A DNA stretch of 64,000 nucleotides from Candidatus Nanoarchaeia archaeon (GCA_041501125.1 JBGQNO010000001.1:37981-101980), one strand, 5' to 3'. Counted from the first letter of the stretch, positions 22,457-61,856 are shown. A program made the numbers and translations. The notes: generated from the sequence alone by a model not told the origin.

Positions 22457-23071
22457 CTAATCTTTCCTGTCTTTTTTACCATTCCTAACTCTCACTTTTA
22501 CACTTTTTAGCATTCTTTCTTTAACATCATCAGGCACAAATACCCTCTTTTTACCGTTTTTCTCTATTATTTCCTCAATCATGCCCTCACTTTTCTGTTT
22601 GATAGCATTTACCTGCCCCCTAATCGTAGCTCTGCTTTTTCCTAGCATCACAGCAAGGTCATCGTAACTCAACTTTAGATCAGAGTTTAACATGATGGCA
22701 AACAACGCGCGCTCCATCATTGAAAAACTATCTAAAACACCTGTTTGAACAGGTGTTTGAACAGGTATTTGAACAGCTTCAACAGCCCGCTGTTGCTTCA
22801 AAACAGCCCTGGGTGTTTTAAACAGCTGTTTAACCACCCTCTCGTCAGCCATAGACATCACATCTTTTAGGCTTTCCAGTTCGCGTTTTATCGTCGACAA
22901 ATCATCTTTGACGCTGTTTATATCTTCCTGATGGCCCTGGTCCTGTTTATGCAGGTGTTTTATCCAGCTGCCAATCTTATCAATGTCATCTTTGACTAAA
23001 GAAAAACTATTCTGAACATCCTCTTCAAGCTTCTCAACACTCTTTTTCTTTCCAAACAACCAATCAAACAT
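22457..23071 (-). CDS. Coiled-coil / Gln-Pro-Val-Thr repeat linker / C-terminal HTH regulator (paralog of 21456-22121)
   Basis: 204 aa. N-terminal coiled coil. IPVQTPVQTGV repeat linker encoded by a tandem DNA repeat. C-terminal HTH (LSYDDLAVMLGKSRATIRGQVNAIKQK). Confidence 0.5.
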   Translation of the reverse strand: MFDWLFGKKKSVEKLEEDVQNSFSLVKDDIDKIGSWIKHLHKQDQGHQEDINSVKDDLSTIKRELESLKDVMSMADERVVKQLFKTPRAVLKQQRAVEAVQIPVQTPVQTGVLDSFSMMERALFAIMLNSDLKLSYDDLAVMLGKSRATIRGQVNAIKQKSEGMIEEIIEKNGKKRVFVPDDVKERMLKSVKVRVRNGKKDRKD

Positions 23072-35606: not shown

Positions 35607-35770
35607 AAAATAAAAAAAGCAAGACAGCTTTTTGGTTTCGCCTCTTGTGAAGACTACACCCAAAAACGTAACCAGCTTAACTTCTGTGTTCGGAAAGGGA
35701 ACAGGTGTTTCCTGGTTACTATGGCCGTCTTAACTTTAATCAATATGACTCGCTTTTAAAGTTTTCTATA

Positions 35771-35845
35771 CGCTCCCGATAGGATTTGAACCTACGATCT
35801 TCAGGTTAGGAACCTGCTGCTCTATCCAGGCTGAGCTACAGGAGC
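35771..35845 (-). tRNA. tRNA-Arg (anticodon CCU)
   Basis: Reverse-strand cloverleaf: acceptor GCTCCTG/CGGGAGC+G. D arm GCTC-AGCCTGGATA-GAGC. Anticodon loop UUCCUAA. T arm GTAGG-TTCAAAT-CCTAT. Confidence 0.7.
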
Positions 35846-35884
35846 ATAATGATATGCAGAATCTGAATTTAAAAAATGTATCCT

Positions 35885-36394
35885 TTAATGCTTCCAGAAC
35901 CAGAACCCTTTTTTCTTCTTTTCTTTTGGTCTTATGTAAACTACCTGCAAATCATAAGCTTGGGCTGATTTTGCCTGTACAAGATCTGATGTTATTAATG
36001 CAGATTTTGTTTTCATTGCAATCTCTCTTATCAGCGCATCAATTTCTCCTGATTTCGCAAATTTGATTTGCTGTTCAGTTGGTCTTAACCCATAAAAGTA
36101 AATGTCAATTTGGTATTTTTTCTTCAACTTATGCAGCTCAGCAATCTCATCCAAGCCCCGAAATCCTTCTTCTCTGCCTTTATTTGCTAGGTTTTCCAGT
36201 TCTGCCATCACCGCATTTGGAACTACAATTTTTCCTCGCAATCCCTTTGAAATCAATCTTGGCAGAAATTTGTTTATAACCGCAGAAGTGTCAACAACAT
36301 AGCTTCTTTTCTCTTTAGAAAACTGAGAACTGAGCGTTCTTCTGGCATGTGTCTTTACCTGCTGGCTTACTGATTTTTTTTTGAAAATAAACAT
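35885..36394 (-). CDS. PIN-domain protein (putative RNA-processing nuclease)
   Basis: About 170 aa from MFIFKKK. PIN-like YVVDTSAVI and LITSDLVQA acidic-residue segments. The track ORF start (36541) runs through the adjacent tRNA and is rejected. Confidence 0.5.
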   Translation of the reverse strand: MFIFKKKSVSQQVKTHARRTLSSQFSKEKRSYVVDTSAVINKFLPRLISKGLRGKIVVPNAVMAELENLANKGREEGFRGLDEIAELHKLKKKYQIDIYFYGLRPTEQQIKFAKSGEIDALIREIAMKTKSALITSDLVQAKSAQAYDLQVVYIRPKEKKKKGFWFWKH

Positions 36395-36402
36395 TTTTTC
36401 CA

Positions 36403-36486
36403 TGCGGGAGATAGGATTCGAACCTACGAAGGCACTAAGCCGCAGGATCTTGAGTCCTGCCCGTTTGACCGCTCCGGAACCCCCGC
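36403..36486 (-). tRNA. tRNA-Leu (anticodon CAA), type II
   Basis: Acceptor GCGGGGG/CTCCCGC+A. D arm CCG-GAGCGGTCAAA-CGG. Anticodon stem CAGGA/TCCTG with loop CUCAAGA. Variable arm GGC-TTAGT-GCC. T arm GTAGG-TTCGAAT-CCTAT. Confidence 0.75.
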
Positions 36487-36575
36487 ATGAATATCGAACT
36501 TTAAGGCTATTTATAAATATTTCACAGAATGCTATACACAAAACTTTAAAATGCGATTATTTTAATAGTATATAA

Positions 36576-36660
36576 GCGCCGCTAGTTTACCGGTAGAATT
36601 ACTGCCTTCCATTAGTAAAGAAGTTAGCAGTGGAACTGGGTTCAATTCCCAGGTGGCGCA
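36576..36660 (+). tRNA. tRNA-Gly (anticodon UCC) with a ~14-nt intron
   Basis: Acceptor GCGCCGC/GTGGCGC+A. Anticodon stem ACTGC/GCAGT, loop CUUCCA-[intron TTAGTAAAGAAGTT]-A. T arm CTGGG-TTCAATT-CCCAG. 85 nt in total. Confidence 0.6.
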
Positions 36661-40055: not shown

Positions 40056-41843
40056 ATGGCTGAAAATGAAAAGAGTTTAACTGACAGAATTGTTGATGCC
40101 TGGTTCTCAAAAGACAAAACTTTTGTTTATCTTACAATACTTCTTGTTCTTGGTCTGGTATTAAGAATTATTGCAGCTATGAACCTTGATGTTGCTGCAG
40201 ATGACATGCATTTTGCTCCTGGTGCTATCAATTTTCTTTCGTCAGGCAAGCTTGAATATTGGGACCAGTCAGCCGGACTTTGGTTTGCAGTTACTGATAT
40301 ATCCTATAAAATCCTTGGTGTGACACAACTTGCCTCGAGATTTGCACCAGTCTTGTTCGGCACGCTGCTTATATTTGTAGTATTCCTGCTTGCGAAAGAA
40401 CTATTCAAGGATAATAAAACTGCATTGATTGCATCGTTGCTTGTTGCTATCTCACCTTTCCATATAAAGAGCATGATGGCAGAGATGGATGTGATGGCAA
40501 TGTTCTTTGTTTTCCTTTCATTGTTCTTATTTTTAAGAGCATTGAACAACAATACCGATAAGAGGCTCTTGGCTCTGAGTGCGATTGCCCTTGGCCTTGC
40601 GATTTATACAAAAGTTTATCCTTTATTGTTTATTCCAGGCATGGTAATCTTCTGGTTTTATAAAAATCACAAAGAAAAAATTCAGGAAAGAGGAAGTTTC
40701 TACAAAACTCTTATTTTGTTTCTGGCAGTAATCTTTATTTTCTGTCTGCCAACTTTGACTCATAATTATCTACTTTACAAAGAAAAAGGCATAATGGACG
40801 TAAGATTTTCAGAGATACTTGGAATCAATAAAAGCTTAGATATGTACTCATGGGCAGCAGGTAGTGGAGCCAAGCCAGATTTTGCAGGATTTTTCTTAGG
40901 CAGGTCAGGAGCATATAATGGAATGCCAACTTCCCTGCTTGCTTTGTACTGGGTTTTTAATGCAGACCCGCTTGTCTTTATCCTAGGTATACTTGGTCTG
41001 ATTCTGCTCTGGAAGCGAAAAGATTTGTTGCTATTAATGGGTTTAATGTTTATATTTCCATTTGCATATCTTGCATCTCTTGTATTGCTAATTAAGCATT
41101 ATCTGTTTGTCTCACTTATTTTAACAATTCCAGCAGCAGCAACACTTGCAAGAATTTCAAAATTTGTGAGGCTAAGATACATTGCAGTAATTATAATAAT
41201 ATTCTCCTTAGTTTACTTGAGTTTTCCTAACCAGACAAATGCTCATTCGATTTACGAAAAGAGTACTATTGCCAAATTGATGGACTTTAAACAAAACATG
41301 AACCCAGAAGCTATAGTCCTGGTAGACAGCAGAGTATACAGAGGAGAGATGACATGGGCATTCAGTGATAGGCATTACCTTGAGGCCAGCTATATAAATG
41401 AATTTTTCAAAATGCAGGAAAACCAGACCAAAGTTTCAACACCTGTCTATTATATTGAGTGTGCAAGAGATGACTGTGGCTGGGGAACAGTTTACAACCA
41501 GCCAGAATTTAATGCAACAATGGAAAATATGTCAGCATACTTCAGAAGCATATCAAACAAAGTTGGAGCAATTAGTGATGCACAAGGAGAATACTTTGAT
41601 GTTTACAAAACTGAAATGAATCTTGTTCCGCAATCTGCGTCAATTGTAGATTTGACACATAATTGGTGGCTTTATCCTCTGGGCTACAATAAGCAGATTT
41701 CAACAATCTTTGATGAGTATACACCAAAGTCATTTTCAGGAATCTTGCTTAATAACATAGCCCATGCAATACTTTATTTTTCAATAGCAGCATTCCTTTC
41801 AATACTGGTTGTATTATACCTGCTAATTAAAGAATTATCCTGA
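40056..41843 (+). CDS. GT-C membrane glycosyltransferase (GT39/GT83, PMT/ArnT-like)
   Basis: 595 aa. About 11 N-terminal TM helices with an acidic DD motif in the first extracytoplasmic loop (DVAADDMHF). Large C-terminal soluble domain and a final TM. Confidence 0.55.
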   Translation: MAENEKSLTDRIVDAWFSKDKTFVYLTILLVLGLVLRIIAAMNLDVAADDMHFAPGAINFLSSGKLEYWDQSAGLWFAVTDISYKILGVTQLASRFAPVLFGTLLIFVVFLLAKELFKDNKTALIASLLVAISPFHIKSMMAEMDVMAMFFVFLSLFLFLRALNNNTDKRLLALSAIALGLAIYTKVYPLLFIPGMVIFWFYKNHKEKIQERGSFYKTLILFLAVIFIFCLPTLTHNYLLYKEKGIMDVRFSEILGINKSLDMYSWAAGSGAKPDFAGFFLGRSGAYNGMPTSLLALYWVFNADPLVFILGILGLILLWKRKDLLLLMGLMFIFPFAYLASLVLLIKHYLFVSLILTIPAAATLARISKFVRLRYIAVIIIIFSLVYLSFPNQTNAHSIYEKSTIAKLMDFKQNMNPEAIVLVDSRVYRGEMTWAFSDRHYLEASYINEFFKMQENQTKVSTPVYYIECARDDCGWGTVYNQPEFNATMENMSAYFRSISNKVGAISDAQGEYFDVYKTEMNLVPQSASIVDLTHNWWLYPLGYNKQISTIFDEYTPKSFSGILLNNIAHAILYFSIAAFLSILVVLYLLIKELS

Positions 41844-44837: not shown

Positions 44838-46343
44838 ATGGAACGTGGCTTGAAGGAGCAAGTTGTTAAGAATTCATTCTGGGCTTTCGCATCTTCTTTG
44901 ATAAACAGGCTTGGAGCATTAATTTTCACAATCATACTTGCACGATTCCTGCTTCCAGAAGGTTTTGGATTATATTCAATTGTCCTATCAACAGCAATGA
45001 TATTCTACACATTTGCAGACCTTGGAATAAACTCAACAATGATAAGGTATGTCTCGCATGCCCTCGCAAATAATAAAAAGAAAGTCTATGCATATCACCG
45101 TTATTTGCTCAAGGTAAAGTTTTTCCTGACACTGGCAGTGTCAGTTGTGTTGCTTGCCCTGTCCTATCCTCTGGCACTTTATGTTTTTAAGAACTCTGCA
45201 TTATTTGTTCCATTCATAACGTCTGCATTTTACATTTTTGTGCTTTCATTTGACACCTTTTATACATCATTTTTCTATACAATTGAAAAAGTGCAGTATG
45301 TCAGCTTTAAGGAGTCATTAAGCCAGATTCTCAGAATTGTTTTTGCACTTGTGGTGTTCTATGTTCTGGCATCTTCATATTATGTTGCAGGAATATTTGT
45401 ATCCTTGGCATTAATTTCATTATTCCTTGTTATTTTTATGTTGTATTACTTGAAAAAGTTGATTCCAGAGATATTCCTGCATCCTGGAAAAGAAATTGGG
45501 ATTGACAAAGCAAGAGTTTTGAAATTTGCAGGTTTCCTGACAATTGCAAGCATCTCTACAATATTCTTTTCTTATGTAGACTCAATTATGCTTGGAATGT
45601 TTTTGAAGCCAGAGTTTGTTGGTTTCTATCGTGCGGCATTCTCGCTTGTTTCAGGAGTTTCAGCCATTATTCTTGCACCAGCAGTTATTTTGTTGCCAAT
45701 GTTCACAAAACTTAAAAAATCCAAAACTGAAAATGCATTAAACCAGATTTTCAAGTATCTTACAATCTTTGCAGTTCCAGCAGCATTCGGCTTGCTTATT
45801 CTTGGAAAATATTTTGTAAGATTTTTCTATGACTATTCATACATTCCAGCAGCCCTGCCTCTTTATTTTCTTTCATTTTTAATAATTCCAGTAGTTTACG
45901 TGTCTGTTTTCCTTCCGCTTTTTTCAGCACGGGAAAAACCGCAGATTTTTGCAAAAATAATTGTGGCAGCAAGCATACTCAACATAATACTAAACTACAT
46001 TTTAATCAAGGCACTTCTTCCAGTATCGTCAATCTGGGCAACTGCCGGAGCCAGCATAGCTACTTTGACAAGCTGGATTTTCTATCTTATTGCAGTTGTT
46101 TATGTCTCTAAAAAAGAACTTGGCATTGCAGTTTCATTTAAGCATTTAATCAGGCCATTTATTGCAGGCATTATTATGTCCGGAGCTGTGCTTTATACAA
46201 TGACCTTCTTCAAGGACATGACTTTTATCTCAGGCACATTAGAGATATTGCTGGGCATACTAGTTTATTTCGGCGCATTGTTCTTGATAGGCGGGATAAA
46301 ACGCGAAGATTTTGAACTTATCAAGTTATTAAGAAGATTATAG
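44838..46343 (+). CDS. Wzx-like oligosaccharide flippase (MOP superfamily polysaccharide transporter)
   Basis: 501 aa, about 14 TM helices. N-terminal polysaccharide biosynthesis protein pattern. Confidence 0.6.
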   Translation: MERGLKEQVVKNSFWAFASSLINRLGALIFTIILARFLLPEGFGLYSIVLSTAMIFYTFADLGINSTMIRYVSHALANNKKKVYAYHRYLLKVKFFLTLAVSVVLLALSYPLALYVFKNSALFVPFITSAFYIFVLSFDTFYTSFFYTIEKVQYVSFKESLSQILRIVFALVVFYVLASSYYVAGIFVSLALISLFLVIFMLYYLKKLIPEIFLHPGKEIGIDKARVLKFAGFLTIASISTIFFSYVDSIMLGMFLKPEFVGFYRAAFSLVSGVSAIILAPAVILLPMFTKLKKSKTENALNQIFKYLTIFAVPAAFGLLILGKYFVRFFYDYSYIPAALPLYFLSFLIIPVVYVSVFLPLFSAREKPQIFAKIIVAASILNIILNYILIKALLPVSSIWATAGASIATLTSWIFYLIAVVYVSKKELGIAVSFKHLIRPFIAGIIMSGAVLYTMTFFKDMTFISGTLEILLGILVYFGALFLIGGIKREDFELIKLLRRL

Positions 46344-51165: not shown

Positions 51166-52274
51166 TTAAATGAAATCTAAGCCACAATAACAATTCTTGC
51201 ATACAGGCAACATCTTGTCTATAAAAGCATTTTTTCTAAATTCTTTAAATTTCTTAGAGTTCCATATGTTATCAATATTATCAGTTAGAATATTTCCCAT
51301 ATTCATTCTAATAAAACCACATGGAATTATGTCACCATTATAGTCCAAAAAAAGCATGTTTCTTGCCGTGCAGATTAGTCTCTTTGACCTTAAACTGAAT
51401 ACATTGTAATTAGACGATTCTTTTAAAATAGGGTTAATCTCAATCCGGGCATCAATATTTTTCATTCTTTTGTATGTTTCAAAAAACTCTTTTATACTAA
51501 TATTATCACTTTGCATACAAGTCGATATCATCCCCCCCCCCCGTCAATAATTTTTAATGTATCTTCAATTTGCCCACTTTTCATATTTTGAATAGGATAA
51601 GTTAACCCAAATGATTTTGTCCCTAGGTCCTTGCACAATTTAATAACTTTTTCTGCATCATGAATGTTCTCTTTTTGCAAAACAAAATTAATACCCACAT
51701 CAAAATTTTTAGTCAAAATTTTTATAGTCTTTACTGTTTTGTTAAAAGCCCCGATTCTTCCACGGATTTTGTCGTGAGACTCTTGTAGTCCATCTAAGGA
51801 TATTGAGACGCCGGTAATCGGATAGTTCTTTAATTTCTCTGCAATATTTTCATTGATAAGAGTACCATTGGTTCCAAATTCTATGTTCATTTGATTGTCT
51901 TTTATACAGTCAAGAATTTGAAACAAATCATCTCTCAGAAGGATTTCACCACCAGTTAAACAAATCTTTTTGATGCCAAACTTCTTTAAAGAGAATATAG
52001 CCTTCTCAATCTCTTTTGAAGACAACTCATCTGCATGCAGTTTATTCAGATTTTTAGCTCTGAACTCTTTTTGATGGCACATCTGGCAATTTAGATTACA
52101 TCTCATAGTAAGAAAAATTAGAGCATTTTTTGGCTTAGGAAAGTCTGCCATATTCTTAATCCTTGAATAATCTACTCTTTTCTTTAATTTTGAATATGCT
52201 CTTATTATATACTCGCCAAAGATGTTACTATCTAATGATTTTATAAGTTTTTCTTTCAAAAGTTTAAAGTTCAT
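51166..52274 (-). pseudogene. Radical SAM enzyme with C-terminal SPASM domain, split by a frameshift inside an 11-nt poly-G/C tract
   Basis: Upstream part 51528-52274: CNLNCQMC radical SAM motif, ends ...IIDGGGG then TGA. Downstream part 51166-51531: SPASM Cys motifs CTARNM...CGF...CKNCYCG. A +1 G (12 G) would fuse the frames. Confidence 0.75.
51532..51542. repeat. Homopolymeric C(11) tract (G(11) on the coding strand) at the frameshift site
   Basis: Read directly: tccccccccccccg spanning 51532-51542. Confidence 0.9.
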
Positions 52275-53089
52275 TTTGTAATCTCTATCCTCTTTGCGTA
52301 AAGAACATTCAGCCCGTTATTTCCAGGATACAGCATCCTGACATCAAACCCGTTTTTCTCAAGAAAGTTTTTCATTGTCTGCACATCTCTTTTCTCGTCA
52401 AGAGCATGAACTTCCATGCTTATCTTGTCAATCCTTTTAAGAAGTTCTGGAGCAGAGAAAAGAATTTCATATTCTGCTCCTTCGCAGTCGCATTTAAGAA
52501 AATTTATCCTGTCTATTTTGTTCATCGCAAAAACATCCTTCAATGAAATTGTCTTTATCGAAAATTTCTGCCTGTTCTCGCCGCCTGTTATGTAAAATGA
52601 ATGCCCTCCGGTGTTTATGCCAGAAACCATTATGTCTTTGTTGCCAGTCTTGTCAGAAACACCAGCATTATATGCAACAACATTCTTCAAATTATTCAGT
52701 TTTGCATTATCCTTAAGCCTGTCAAAATTCTCCTTTACAGGCTCAAATGCATAAACTTTTCCTTCAGAAGCTTTTGATGCAGCATAAACAGTAAAAACTC
52801 CAACATTTGCGCCTATATCCATGATAATGTCATTTTTGTTGATTTCAAATCCCTCTGGATTATACTCTTCATATACCCAAATTTCATTTATCATATTCCT
52901 CTCAAAACTGTCAGACTTTATCAGCAACTGAATGCCATTCCTGAACTTATAGACTAAGTTTGTATCTTTGTATTTGCCAAGAAAATCTTTGAAATATGTG
53001 GGCCAATTTTTTATTAGCTTGATAATCTTGAATCCAGCAGCTATCTGCTTGAGTCCTATTTTAGTGTCGCGATTCCTGCTTAATTTCAT
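52271..53089 (-). CDS. FkbM-family SAM-dependent methyltransferase
   Basis: 272 aa. MDIGANVGVFTVYAAS motif typical of Methyltransf_21/FkbM. Confidence 0.65.
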   Translation of the reverse strand: MKLSRNRDTKIGLKQIAAGFKIIKLIKNWPTYFKDFLGKYKDTNLVYKFRNGIQLLIKSDSFERNMINEIWVYEEYNPEGFEINKNDIIMDIGANVGVFTVYAASKASEGKVYAFEPVKENFDRLKDNAKLNNLKNVVAYNAGVSDKTGNKDIMVSGINTGGHSFYITGGENRQKFSIKTISLKDVFAMNKIDRINFLKCDCEGAEYEILFSAPELLKRIDKISMEVHALDEKRDVQTMKNFLEKNGFDVRMLYPGNNGLNVLYAKRIEITK

Positions 53090-54174
53090 TTTTCACTCAA
53101 ATTAGCGTCTTTTATTAACTTTTCCAATTTAGGCAGAAGAATCTTCCAGTCAAACCTTTTGACATTTTTTCTTGCTTCTTTGCCCATTTTTATTGCAAGT
53201 TTCTTGTTGTCAGCCAAGAAATCAATAGTCTCAGCTATGCTCTCAGGCCTGACTCCATCCAGAAGAAAACCTGTTTTTCCATTTATTACGCTCTCGCGTA
53301 ATCCACCCTCGTTTTCACCGATTATAACTTTTCCAGAAGCTCCTGCTTCCAGAGGCACAAGCCCCCAGTCTTCATTAATGCATATGCTTATCACTCCAAG
53401 GCAATTTGCATACAATCTGGCAAGTTCCTTGTCAGACACGTTTCCAAGAAATTTAACATTGGAATAATTTTTGCACAACTCAACTATTTTGTCCTTGTCA
53501 GGCCCATCACCTACAACATAAAGCTCAATGTCTTTGTTCTTTACAAGCCCCATGCTTTTGATTGCAATATCCACTCGTTTGGCAGGAACAAATCTTCCAA
53601 CAGACAGGATATAATTTTGATAGCTTTTTGGCTTGTAGTCATTATAATTTATTCCATGATAGACTACTTGTGCATCTCGTCCATAATACTTTTTCACTCT
53701 CTCACGTACATTTATGCTGTTAGTTGCTATTGTCTTTATGTTCTGGGCAGCCAGTTTGTCAAGTCCCTGAAAAAGAAGCTTTTTCAGCACCAAGGATATT
53801 TTTCCCAGGAAGCTGGCATTATTCCAGTAATATCTTCGCAAATCATAAAAATCTCTTTTTGGAGAATAACAAACCCAGAATACATTGTCATTTCTTAAAC
53901 TTGCAAAATTTGTCGGCCAGTCATTTGCAATAACAACATCAAATCCATCAAATTTCTTGAACCAAAACACAAATGGCGAGAAGATTTTTGACTTTAGCCC
54001 AAGAAGATTTATCTTCAGTTTCTTGAAACCAGGATATGCTGTTTCGGAATTGTATCTCTGGGTAAAGATTTCAACTTCATGCCCTCTTTTCTGCAGGTAA
54101 AGTGCGTAGGTTTCTATAACTCTCTGGGCACCGCCAATTCCCTCAATATAAGGCTGGAGTATTGCTATCTTCAT
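53086..54174 (-). CDS. Glycosyltransferase family 4 (GT-B)
   Basis: 362 aa. E-x7-E motif region GENEGGLRESVINGKTGFL. Confidence 0.75.
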   Translation of the reverse strand: MKIAILQPYIEGIGGAQRVIETYALYLQKRGHEVEIFTQRYNSETAYPGFKKLKINLLGLKSKIFSPFVFWFKKFDGFDVVIANDWPTNFASLRNDNVFWVCYSPKRDFYDLRRYYWNNASFLGKISLVLKKLLFQGLDKLAAQNIKTIATNSINVRERVKKYYGRDAQVVYHGINYNDYKPKSYQNYILSVGRFVPAKRVDIAIKSMGLVKNKDIELYVVGDGPDKDKIVELCKNYSNVKFLGNVSDKELARLYANCLGVISICINEDWGLVPLEAGASGKVIIGENEGGLRESVINGKTGFLLDGVRPESIAETIDFLADNKKLAIKMGKEARKNVKRFDWKILLPKLEKLIKDANLSEK

Positions 54175-54232
54175 ACATTTTTTAGAATGGTTATATATTT
54201 AAATTCGTTTCTTTATCATAAAATGCCTGAAA

Positions 54233-60464: not shown

Positions 60465-61856
60465 ATGAAGCACCAGAAAATTTTGTCTAAAGAAAAGCTT
60501 AAGCAGATTATTCGCAAGTATAAATCTAAGGGCAAGAAAGTTGTCTGGACAAACGGATGCTTTGACCTGATACACTCAGGACACGTAAGATACCTTAACT
60601 CAGCAAAAAAACTTGGTGATATCCTGATTGTTGGTTTGAATTCTGACAAATCTGTCAGACAATTAAAAGGTCCAGACAGACCGATTCAGCCGCAGGATCA
60701 AAGAGCAGAAGTTCTTGCAGCTTTGGATTCTGTAGATTATGTTACAATATTTAATGATACTAGAGTTACTAAAATTCTCAATTATCTTAAACCAGACGTT
60801 TTTGTAAAAGGCGGCGACTATACGCTCGAGAAAATGGATCAGAATGAGAGAAAAGTATTGGAAAGCTATGGAGCAAAGATAAGATTCATCCCAGTTGAAA
60901 TAAATACATCAACATCAAAGATGCTTGACAAAATTACCAGCTCAGAAACTAAAAAAGGAGTTAAAGAATTCCTGTCCAACCTTCCTGTCAAAATGCACTA
61001 TGACTACAAGGATTACAACGAGCAAAAATACGAGACTGGTTTCTGGAACATCAACCGCTCAAAATACAAATGGTTCCAGAATTATACAAAACTAAAGATT
61101 TTCAGCAAATGGATAAAGGCTTCTAAAGGCAAGTCAGTGTTCTTGGATGCAGGCGGCGGTGTTGGAAACTGGACATTTTATTTTCTTAAAGATTTCAAGA
61201 AGTGCATAGTTCTTGATATTTCAGAAAACGCTTTAGCGCAGATTCCAGAAAAAGAAATTGTTAAGCTGCACGGCTCAATTCTCAAAATCCCCTTGCCCGA
61301 TAATTCAGTAGACTGCATACTACTTGCAGATGTCTTTGAGCATATTTTTTTGAATGACCTGCCAAAGATGCTTCAGGAACTTGCAAGAATCCTGACAAAA
61401 GATGGCAGAATCATAATTTTTACATCAGAAAATGGATATGGCATTGATTTGATTTTTGATAACTTGTTTGGACAGATGCGCGGAGGATTGACACTGGCAG
61501 ATATAGAGTGCGGGCATGTTAATCGTTTGACACTGGATGAAAAAAGAAAACTCTTCGCACAAGCAGGCTTGAAGCTGGCAGATTATTATAACTACAGTAT
61601 CTTTTTTCAGCAGCTTACTGACTTTGTTAAAGACAGTTCAGCCAAAATCATAGGCAAGCTGTTTGCAAGAAACAAGAGTGAAGAATCCGGCCAGTTTTTG
61701 AAAGACAGGTTCAAAACCCAGAAAGAGCCAAGCATTGTCACAAGAGCATTATTTTCTATTCCAACATTAATTTCATATCTGGATATTTATCTTGGAAGAT
61801 TTATCCGAGGCTCATACATTTTTTTGCTCCTCGAAAAAAGCAATAAAAAGGAATAA
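60465..61856 (+). CDS. Bifunctional protein: N-terminal RfaE-domain-II-like heptose-1-phosphate nucleotidyltransferase (cytidylyltransferase fold) fused to a C-terminal class I SAM methyltransferase
   Basis: 463 aa. N-terminus WTNGCFDLIHSGHVRYL...LNSDKSVRQLKGPDRP closely matches HldE/RfaE domain II. C-terminal half has methyltransferase motif I FLDAGGGVGNW and DVFEHI. Confidence 0.7.
   Translation: MKHQKILSKEKLKQIIRKYKSKGKKVVWTNGCFDLIHSGHVRYLNSAKKLGDILIVGLNSDKSVRQLKGPDRPIQPQDQRAEVLAALDSVDYVTIFNDTRVTKILNYLKPDVFVKGGDYTLEKMDQNERKVLESYGAKIRFIPVEINTSTSKMLDKITSSETKKGVKEFLSNLPVKMHYDYKDYNEQKYETGFWNINRSKYKWFQNYTKLKIFSKWIKASKGKSVFLDAGGGVGNWTFYFLKDFKKCIVLDISENALAQIPEKEIVKLHGSILKIPLPDNSVDCILLADVFEHIFLNDLPKMLQELARILTKDGRIIIFTSENGYGIDLIFDNLFGQMRGGLTLADIECGHVNRLTLDEKRKLFAQAGLKLADYYNYSIFFQQLTDFVKDSSAKIIGKLFARNKSEESGQFLKDRFKTQKEPSIVTRALFSIPTLISYLDIYLGRFIRGSYIFLLLEKSNKKE

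Follow-up and report, generated by a model that had tools for sequence, protein, structure and literature searches.

Introduction

For host-associated bacteria, turning surface glycans on and off by means of repeats is a central form of bet-hedging; to our knowledge, such switching is barely documented in archaea. Poly-G/C contingency loci have been described in bacterial surface-glycan genes, such as the capsule and LOS genes of Campylobacter jejuni and pgtA of Neisseria (PMC8437040, PMC6321876, PMC2193922). Several of their traits are found again at the locus reported below: a G/C homopolymer of about 8-12 nt that lies inside a gene of an AT-rich genome, the toggling of a glycan-modifying enzyme between full-length and truncated forms by an indel of one base, and a gene placed within a strain-variable polysaccharide locus. 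In Campylobacter and Neisseria, length heterogeneity of the tracts is documented within and between isolates, many tracts are present per genome, and they are often conserved among strains.

Two archaeal systems also resemble the present locus. The fucA1 gene for the alpha-L-fucosidase of Sulfolobus (Saccharolobus) solfataricus is divided between an ORF in the 0 frame and one in the -1 frame, with programmed -1 frameshifting as the means of expression (PMC1616953, PMC8211752). Common to fucA1 and the gene studied here are an archaeal, sugar-related enzyme, 0 and -1 frame ORFs that meet at a homopolymer-containing site, and relatives that have the gene in full length, with a run that differs by one nucleotide. 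The second system is that of the split protein genes of Nanoarchaeota (PMC3655853, PMC3491384), which likewise belong to a DPANN lineage, are split at a domain boundary, and have both halves retained and conserved.

The present analysis concerns a stretch of 64,000 nt from a Candidatus Nanoarchaeia archaeon (GCA_041501125.1 JBGQNO010000001.1:37981-101980), called the window throughout; all coordinates are counted from its first nucleotide. A first-pass annotation had proposed that a radical SAM/SPASM gene at 51166-52274, interrupted by a frameshift inside a run of eleven Gs, is a candidate phase-variable switch, and had named a sequencing artefact, a decayed gene and programmed frameshifting as alternatives. 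DPANN archaea live attached to other cells, and retroelement-based diversification of their surface proteins is known. No documented case of a simple sequence repeat (SSR) switch in DPANN archaea was found in the literature searched, where SSR phase variation in archaea or DPANN is treated in genome-statistics papers and passing statements, with no worked example.

Results

A radical SAM/SPASM gene interrupted at a poly-G tract

The run of eleven Cs at 51532-51542 on the plus strand reads as G11 on the coding (minus) strand. It is the only C/G run of at least 7 nt in the window, the next longest being a single G6. Base composition (37% G+C) predicts about 0.001 runs of this length in 64 kb, which makes the tract roughly 1000-fold unexpected. 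Coding needs do not explain it either: GGG makes up 10% of the Gly codons of the window, so that four consecutive GGG codons remain unaccounted for. The longest A/T homopolymer of the window is a T9 run (36374-36382) adjoining a 5S rRNA gene. This 5S gene, at 35619-36660 together with flanking tRNA-Arg(CCT), tRNA-Leu(CAA) and tRNA-Trp(CCA) genes, stands apart from any 16S or 23S genes within the window.

The frameshift occurs at this tract, located at 67% of the gene length, away from the 5′ end, a position that speaks against a switch. Upstream, the rSAM ORF (51528-52274, minus strand, 248 aa) encodes a radical SAM core with the motif C59-x3-C63-x2-C66, and ends with KIIDGGGG-TGA within the eleven Gs, as the first-pass annotation had read it; its exact product is P0002. 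Downstream, the SPASM ORF (51166-51531, minus strand, 121 aa, exact product P0121) encodes a bridging region followed by a Cys-rich domain of the SPASM/twitch type. The SPASM domain had been placed in the +1 frame, which had to be corrected: relative to the rSAM ORF, its frame is -1 (equivalent to +2). The two ORFs share the tetranucleotide ATGA (51528-51531, minus strand), made of the TGA of the rSAM ORF and an ATG of the SPASM ORF. This overlapping ATG was missing from the earlier description, and the N-terminus predicted from it is MISTCMQSDNISIK (MISTCMQ...).

The tract was then modelled at different lengths. With 12 G, a single ORF of 369 aa was obtained, in agreement with the proposal that one extra G would fuse the two halves into an enzyme of about 370 aa; with 9 G, a single ORF of 368 aa resulted. 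Truncation occurred at 255, 248 and 256 aa with 10, 11 and 13 G, respectively. By this in silico frame arithmetic, a one-base change in the tract toggles the protein between full length and truncated. The junction peptide predicted for the full-length enzyme is ...IIDGGGGMISTCMQ... (IIDGGGGMISTCMQSDNISIK).

The fused product is a canonical two-domain enzyme

In current annotation, the gene is called as two separate "radical SAM" proteins. The fused protein matched PF04055 (E 3e-26) and the SPASM family PF13186 (E 1e-13; 51.6 bits for a cut-off of 21.5), and several NCBIfam rSAM/SPASM models spanned the junction, for instance over residues 55-351 and 48-362. The best NCBIfam matches were AhbD/NirJ-like models, all of them far under their family cut-offs (133 bits for AhbD, where the cut-off is 500). 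The best matches in sequence and structure were SkfB, SuiB, BlsE, MoaA and anSME, a generic rSAM/SPASM resemblance; the protein has in common with them the CxxxCxxC radical SAM core and a C-terminal Cys-rich auxiliary-cluster domain; it belongs to none of the characterised rSAM/SPASM subfamilies. A precise enzymatic function was not retained, given equivalog matches so far below cut-offs and structure matches this generic. The three cysteines of the core (C59, C63, C66) are invariant in the family alignment, as are those at fused positions 319, 359, 362 and 364 in the SPASM half. About four conserved cysteines in this half would probably bind a single auxiliary cluster, in a twitch-like arrangement.

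An alignment of 18 family sequences has its most indel-rich segment between barrel and Cys-rich domain, and the junction is located there. In the AF2 model (mean pLDDT 76), the helix 233-243 is followed by a coil of residues 244-249. Given this linker position, the Gly run encoded by the tract should be tolerated as an insertion of four residues in the predicted loop, and a split at the same place would, on the model, separate two folding units.

The split gene ends an operon in a variable glycan island

Both PolD subunits, large and small, and Orc1/Cdc6 are encoded in the window, which identifies the host as an archaeon; the closest named relatives of its Orc1 come from MAGs of the DPANN groups Pacearchaeota/Nanoarchaeota. 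A glycan-biosynthesis island occupies the window from about 40 kb to its end, with genes for PMT-family GT-C enzymes, GtrA, an epimerase, a Wzx-type flippase, B12-radical SAM enzymes, a cytidylyltransferase, FkbM and other methyltransferases, and GT4 and GT9 glycosyltransferases. The glycan-locus setting proposed by the first-pass annotation is confirmed by the neighbours of the gene (GT4, GT9, FkbM, B12-rSAMs, Wzx-type flippase, PMT-family GT-C, GtrA). Judged by its gene content and its divergence between lineages (see below), the segment from about 40000 to 63500 appears to be a hypervariable surface-glycan island of a DPANN archaeon. That the enzyme modifies a surface glycan, and that its putative substrate is a sugar, we infer from gene context.

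The split gene forms the end of a four-ORF operon on the minus strand, which begins with a GT4 glycosyltransferase gene (53086-54174) and continues with an FkbM-type methyltransferase gene (Methyltransf_21, 52271-53089), directly upstream of the rSAM ORF, and then with the rSAM and SPASM ORFs. A 4-nt ATGA overlap is present at every junction (51528-51531, 52271-52274 and 53086-53089); operon-internal genes elsewhere in the window are also often joined in this way. An archaeal-type TATA-box-like element, TTTAAATATATA, located at 54192-54203 on the minus strand, 18-29 nt upstream of the GT4 ATG, is the putative promoter of the operon. Similar elements (TTTATAAA/TTTAAATA) lie about 20-30 nt 5′ of many start codons throughout the window, for instance those of the ORFs at 22457-23071, 24600, 27495, 40056, 46390, 55416 and 56944. 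Shine-Dalgarno-like motifs were found at 9 of the 52 ORFs of the window. The TATA-like elements and the scarcity of Shine-Dalgarno motifs suggest that mRNAs are mostly leaderless or have short leaders. A scan for sigma-70 promoters and intrinsic terminators was disregarded as irrelevant to an archaeon.

Tract length is constant in all readable sequences

Exact-protein look-ups retrieved the same 248-aa and 121-aa products on two other contigs, JGI contig 3300053059 (98 kb, hereafter L001) and NCBI MAG contig GCA_041480385.1 (25 kb, L002), which are 99.95% and 99.96% identical to the window. The tract is exactly 11 G in 3 of 3 sequences, so that no length polymorphism was seen among the three readable consensus sequences. 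They differ by substitutions, some of them clustered, and by one in-frame trinucleotide-repeat indel; over the 14-21 kb compared, no homopolymer differs in length. This constancy, together with the 11 G found in all three, argues against random homopolymer miscalls. The window counts as a third independent sequence, since its GtrA allele is absent from the protein index.

Further contigs carry the exact 248-aa and 121-aa products, which implies 11 G there too. P0002 and P0121 are each the sole member of their cluster; P0121 is indexed on 4 contigs and P0002 on 3. The supernumerary contig, of 50-200 kb, could contain another upstream ORF, possibly with another tract length, or the index could be incomplete. 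The longest contig, of 133,272 bp, is common to both clusters, which favours a gap in the index. No product corresponding to 9, 10, 12 or 13 G was found in a collection of 15 billion proteins. A metagenome-wide pattern scan using flanks conserved with the ortholog described below gave 7 matches, all unrelated and due to chance, and nothing was found in GTDB-representative genomes, by a protein-pattern scan and a length-tolerant exact DNA pattern, or in a scan of IMG/VR.

Strain differences were also observed elsewhere in the island. The ORF of the Wzx-type flippase (44838-46343, plus strand) carries in L002 a C-to-A change (window position 45652, L002 position 9754) that converts codon 272 from TCA to TAA. 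This S272* allele splits the 501-aa flippase into ORFs of 271 and 214 aa; the gene is intact in the window and in the JGI contig. It is a second strain-specific inactivating lesion in the same glycan island. The trinucleotide indel lies in the PMT-family GT-C ORF (40056-41843, plus strand) at window position 41793, where (GCT)2 in the window and L002 corresponds to (GCT)3 in L001 (20483-20485), giving products of 595 and 596 aa; a slippage-type polymorphism therefore segregates in the population. Six substitutions are grouped within 42 nt (61734-61775) of the cytidylyltransferase-methyltransferase ORF (60465-61856), and two affect the single GtrA codon 120 (42210/42212, Ile or Val). Such clusters look like short tracts of recombination or gene conversion rather than independent point mutations.

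A per-run Logan assembly of SRR29605729 matched the window with 100% identity, window-specific alleles included, for 4.5 kb to either side of the tract, and it was broken at the tract itself. Of the two k=31 contigs concerned (_176754 and _29810; L013 and L015), one ends after the tenth G (window position 51533) and the other at 51520, leaving 12 nt unassembled. The gap continues for 11 nt past the tract, more than a pure length bubble would account for; that error-free k-mers were lost near the poly-G is at least as likely a cause of the break as true heterogeneity. Short reads evidently handle this site badly, and the count of 11 could be biased. We take the break as a warning on the count rather than as evidence for switching.

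This raises the question of a tract-length miscall in sequencing or assembly, the real number of Gs being 12 (or 9) and the gene being intact. Long poly-G runs are a known weak spot of short-read chemistry, and the broken assembly indicates that error-free reads across this one are scarce. The three consensus sequences nevertheless have distinct SNP patterns and agree on 11, the other ORFs of the window are intact, and no homopolymer-length difference appeared in the regions compared. One would have to invoke a -1 bias acting systematically in every data set, and we consider this explanation quite unlikely.

The sister lineage has an uninterrupted gene without the tract

A homology search with the fused protein returned only the truncated product P0002 and one close relative, P0001, all other proteins being at most 35% identical. 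P0001 is 78% identical at the amino acid level, has 367 aa, and is encoded by an uninterrupted gene without homopolymer, located in synteny on a 111-kb JGI contig (3300036766; L003) and on a Logan contig. At the junction, its gene reads ATT GGC AGT GGG CAA GTA TCA (GGCAGTGGGCAA; ATTGGCAGTGGGCAAGTA), relative to which the window has a net gain of 5 nt. The 6 nt that follow the tract are unusually diverged from the ortholog, which has CAA GTA at the position of the SPASM ATG; this ATG is therefore lineage-specific. An intact close ortholog without homopolymer, the only one available, is one half of what the first-pass annotation had set in advance as favouring a simple pseudogene, the other half being uniform read support for exactly 11 G.

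Two contigs document the relatedness of this sister lineage: L017, from the same sample as L003, and L016 (512 kb), from another sample. Both encode an Orc1 protein identical to that of the window, and their core genes are 94-96% identical to it in nucleotide sequence. The glycan island of L003 is 75-93% identical to that of the window (83% for the rSAM gene) and differs in gene content, with no FkbM gene between GT4 and rSAM and with an additional 231-aa methyltransferase. The lack of a tract in the ortholog, combined with core genes this similar, implies that the tract is young. It would have arisen within the roughly 5% divergence that separates the sister lineages, inside a fast-evolving island. 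No G/C run of at least 7 nt was found in 63 kb of sister-lineage loci; with G11 standing alone in the window as well, there is no sign of switchable tracts distributed over the genome.

Compared with the ortholog, the rSAM part had a dN/dS of 0.24 and the SPASM part one of 0.14, and no further stop or frameshift was present in the 121 codons downstream of the tract. The SPASM half thus appears not to be decaying, which would fit both a recent event and continued use; dN/dS cannot tell these apart, because most of the divergence predates the frameshift.

These data bear on the possibility of a plain pseudogene, in which expansion of the tract and a slip out of frame would have permanently cost the lineage its enzyme, the downstream half being still intact because the event is recent. 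The uniform 11 G in all readable sequences, the intact ortholog without tract, the presence of other inactivating variants in the same island (Wzx S272* in L002) and the lack of other G/C tracts in the window and in 63 kb of sister DNA all agree with it. Neither half, however, contains a secondary lesion, and the SPASM half has a dN/dS of 0.14, a value with little power for a recent event. Moreover, a perfect G11 is intrinsically reversible, and irreversibility would need later decay, none of which was seen. On balance we regard definitive loss as unlikely.

Could the eleven-G gene still produce an active enzyme?

A functional gene fission, a reading that comes in addition to those of the first-pass annotation, would allow activity in the 11-G state: two polypeptides would be made, the SPASM half by termination-reinitiation at the ATGA, and would assemble non-covalently. 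The downstream half does possess its own start codon overlapping the upstream stop, and a re-initiated SPASM polypeptide is conceivable. The exact overlap is suggestive, as ATGA occurs at only 0.56% of positions, and the same overlap joins all other ORFs of the operon. The ATG is specific to the lineage and accompanied by unusual divergence in the 6 nt past the tract. All strains share the length of 11, the SPASM half is constrained, the break point is in a flexible loop between the domains, and split genes are a hallmark of Nanoarchaeota (PMC3655853, PMC3491384). This has to be set against the fact that the split is confined to one near-clonal lineage (sequences about 99.95% identical), the sister lineage having a fused gene, so that retention over time in more than one lineage was not observed. 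A long-lived split would also be expected to lose its perfect, mutable G run through synonymous changes. The rarity of Shine-Dalgarno-like motifs in the window counts against fission, and a Shine-Dalgarno role of the G run itself was dropped as an argument for it. We know of no two-piece rSAM/SPASM enzyme. Taken together, fission into two cooperating polypeptides seems to us improbable.

Alternatively, recoding could yield a full-length enzyme from the 11-G template, by -1 ribosomal frameshifting or by slippage of RNA polymerase adding a G. The run of 11 nt exceeds the length of the RNA-DNA hybrid, which makes some transcriptional slippage likely. The SPASM frame is the -1 frame, tRNA-Gly can re-pair perfectly on G GGG GGG, and the stop codon comes directly after the G run; an archaeal precedent is -1 PRF at the homopolymer-containing slippery site of fucA1 of S. 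solfataricus (PMC1616953, PMC8211752). In the -1 slippery heptamer X XXY YYZ, Y is usually A or U and Z is not G (PMC8211752). The heptamer at the 0/-1 junction, G GGG GGG, permits re-pairing but is non-canonical in both Y and Z. A stimulatory RNA structure, looked for at 5-9 nt downstream in such sites, was not predicted either: the fold of 51420-51560 (minus strand, 141 nt) was no stabler than that of shuffled sequences, with an MFE z-score of +0.29 and 120 of 200 shuffles folding as well. The interrupted arrangement is, in addition, not conserved in the ortholog, a difference from fucA1 (PMC1616953). We therefore hold recoding to be highly improbable.

Discussion

A recent slippage frameshift in a lineage-specific, hypermutable tract, with the anatomy of a contingency locus and OFF in all populations sampled, is our best explanation for these observations, and we give it about an even chance of being correct. 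A slipped-strand replication error in the young poly-G tract would have made the frameshift, in the segment predicted to code for the loop that joins the radical SAM barrel to the SPASM domain in a putative glycan-modifying enzyme. With 11 G the gene would be OFF, the full-length enzyme not being encoded, and gain of one G or loss of two would restore an enzyme of 369 or 368 aa (ON). That a canonical rSAM/SPASM protein is obtained at 12 or 9 G supports this scheme. Perfect G11 runs, like other simple sequence repeats, are expected to slip at high frequency in replication, and most archaea are without MutS/MutL; the lesion should therefore be reversible, and phase-variable in mechanism. Phase switching at G11 is in this sense plausible.

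Whether the cell makes use of it is a separate matter. The tract may vary in length within populations, and switching may be adaptive, that is, a contingency behaviour. A long uninterrupted in-frame repeat, beyond what composition predicts, was found, and its gain or loss of units switches between full-length and truncated products; conservation of the tract in the ortholog and the presence of other G/C runs of at least 7 nt, in 64 kb of window and 63 kb of sister DNA, were not. The contingency-locus reading of the first-pass annotation accordingly stands in its anatomical part (a G tract in an inter-domain linker, a one-base toggle, a glycan island) and finds no support in the part concerning length variation, with 11 G in three sequences, no variant product, and no tract in the ortholog. 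That this is already a working contingency locus, in which a Pacearchaeota-like DPANN archaeon toggles, by slippage at G11, a radical SAM modification of a glycan from a hypervariable surface-glycan island, is possible but doubtful. The 11-G state might also not be fully null: if re-initiation at the ATGA produced some SPASM half, the switch would be graded rather than binary.

If the switch is real, toggling of the glycan could help the cell to escape viruses or to adjust how it interacts with its host cell. The switch would then be without documented precedent in DPANN archaea, and a second, cheaper route to surface variation in this group. With a tract fixed at 11 G, on the other hand, the locus becomes a dated example of a young homopolymer killing or splitting a two-domain Fe-S enzyme. 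Borne out by reads, the finding would be a modest but real novelty. The locus is also a caution for the annotation of MAGs, where its two halves appear as separate "radical SAM" calls.

Comparison with the known systems helps to place the locus. The island, with its additional strain-level lesions (the Wzx nonsense mutation and the trinucleotide indel), is the kind of place where bacteria are known to vary modifications between ON and OFF. Relative to the many, length-variable tracts of Campylobacter and Neisseria, a single tract of a single length (11) was found here, with none in the ortholog, and the host is a DPANN archaeon. The differences from fucA1 concern the frameshift site: in fucA1 there are rare codons, a heptamer of the sequence A-AAA-AAT, a putative stem-loop, and ORFs that overlap by 40 nt, whereas in the present gene a G run takes the place of the heptamer, no structure is predicted, and the ORFs overlap by the 4 nt ATGA. 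Finally, the splits of Nanoarchaeota are old, common to several lineages, and mostly unlinked in the genome. The split described here leaves its two halves adjacent, belongs to one near-clonal lineage, and was caused by a mutable repeat that is still perfect.
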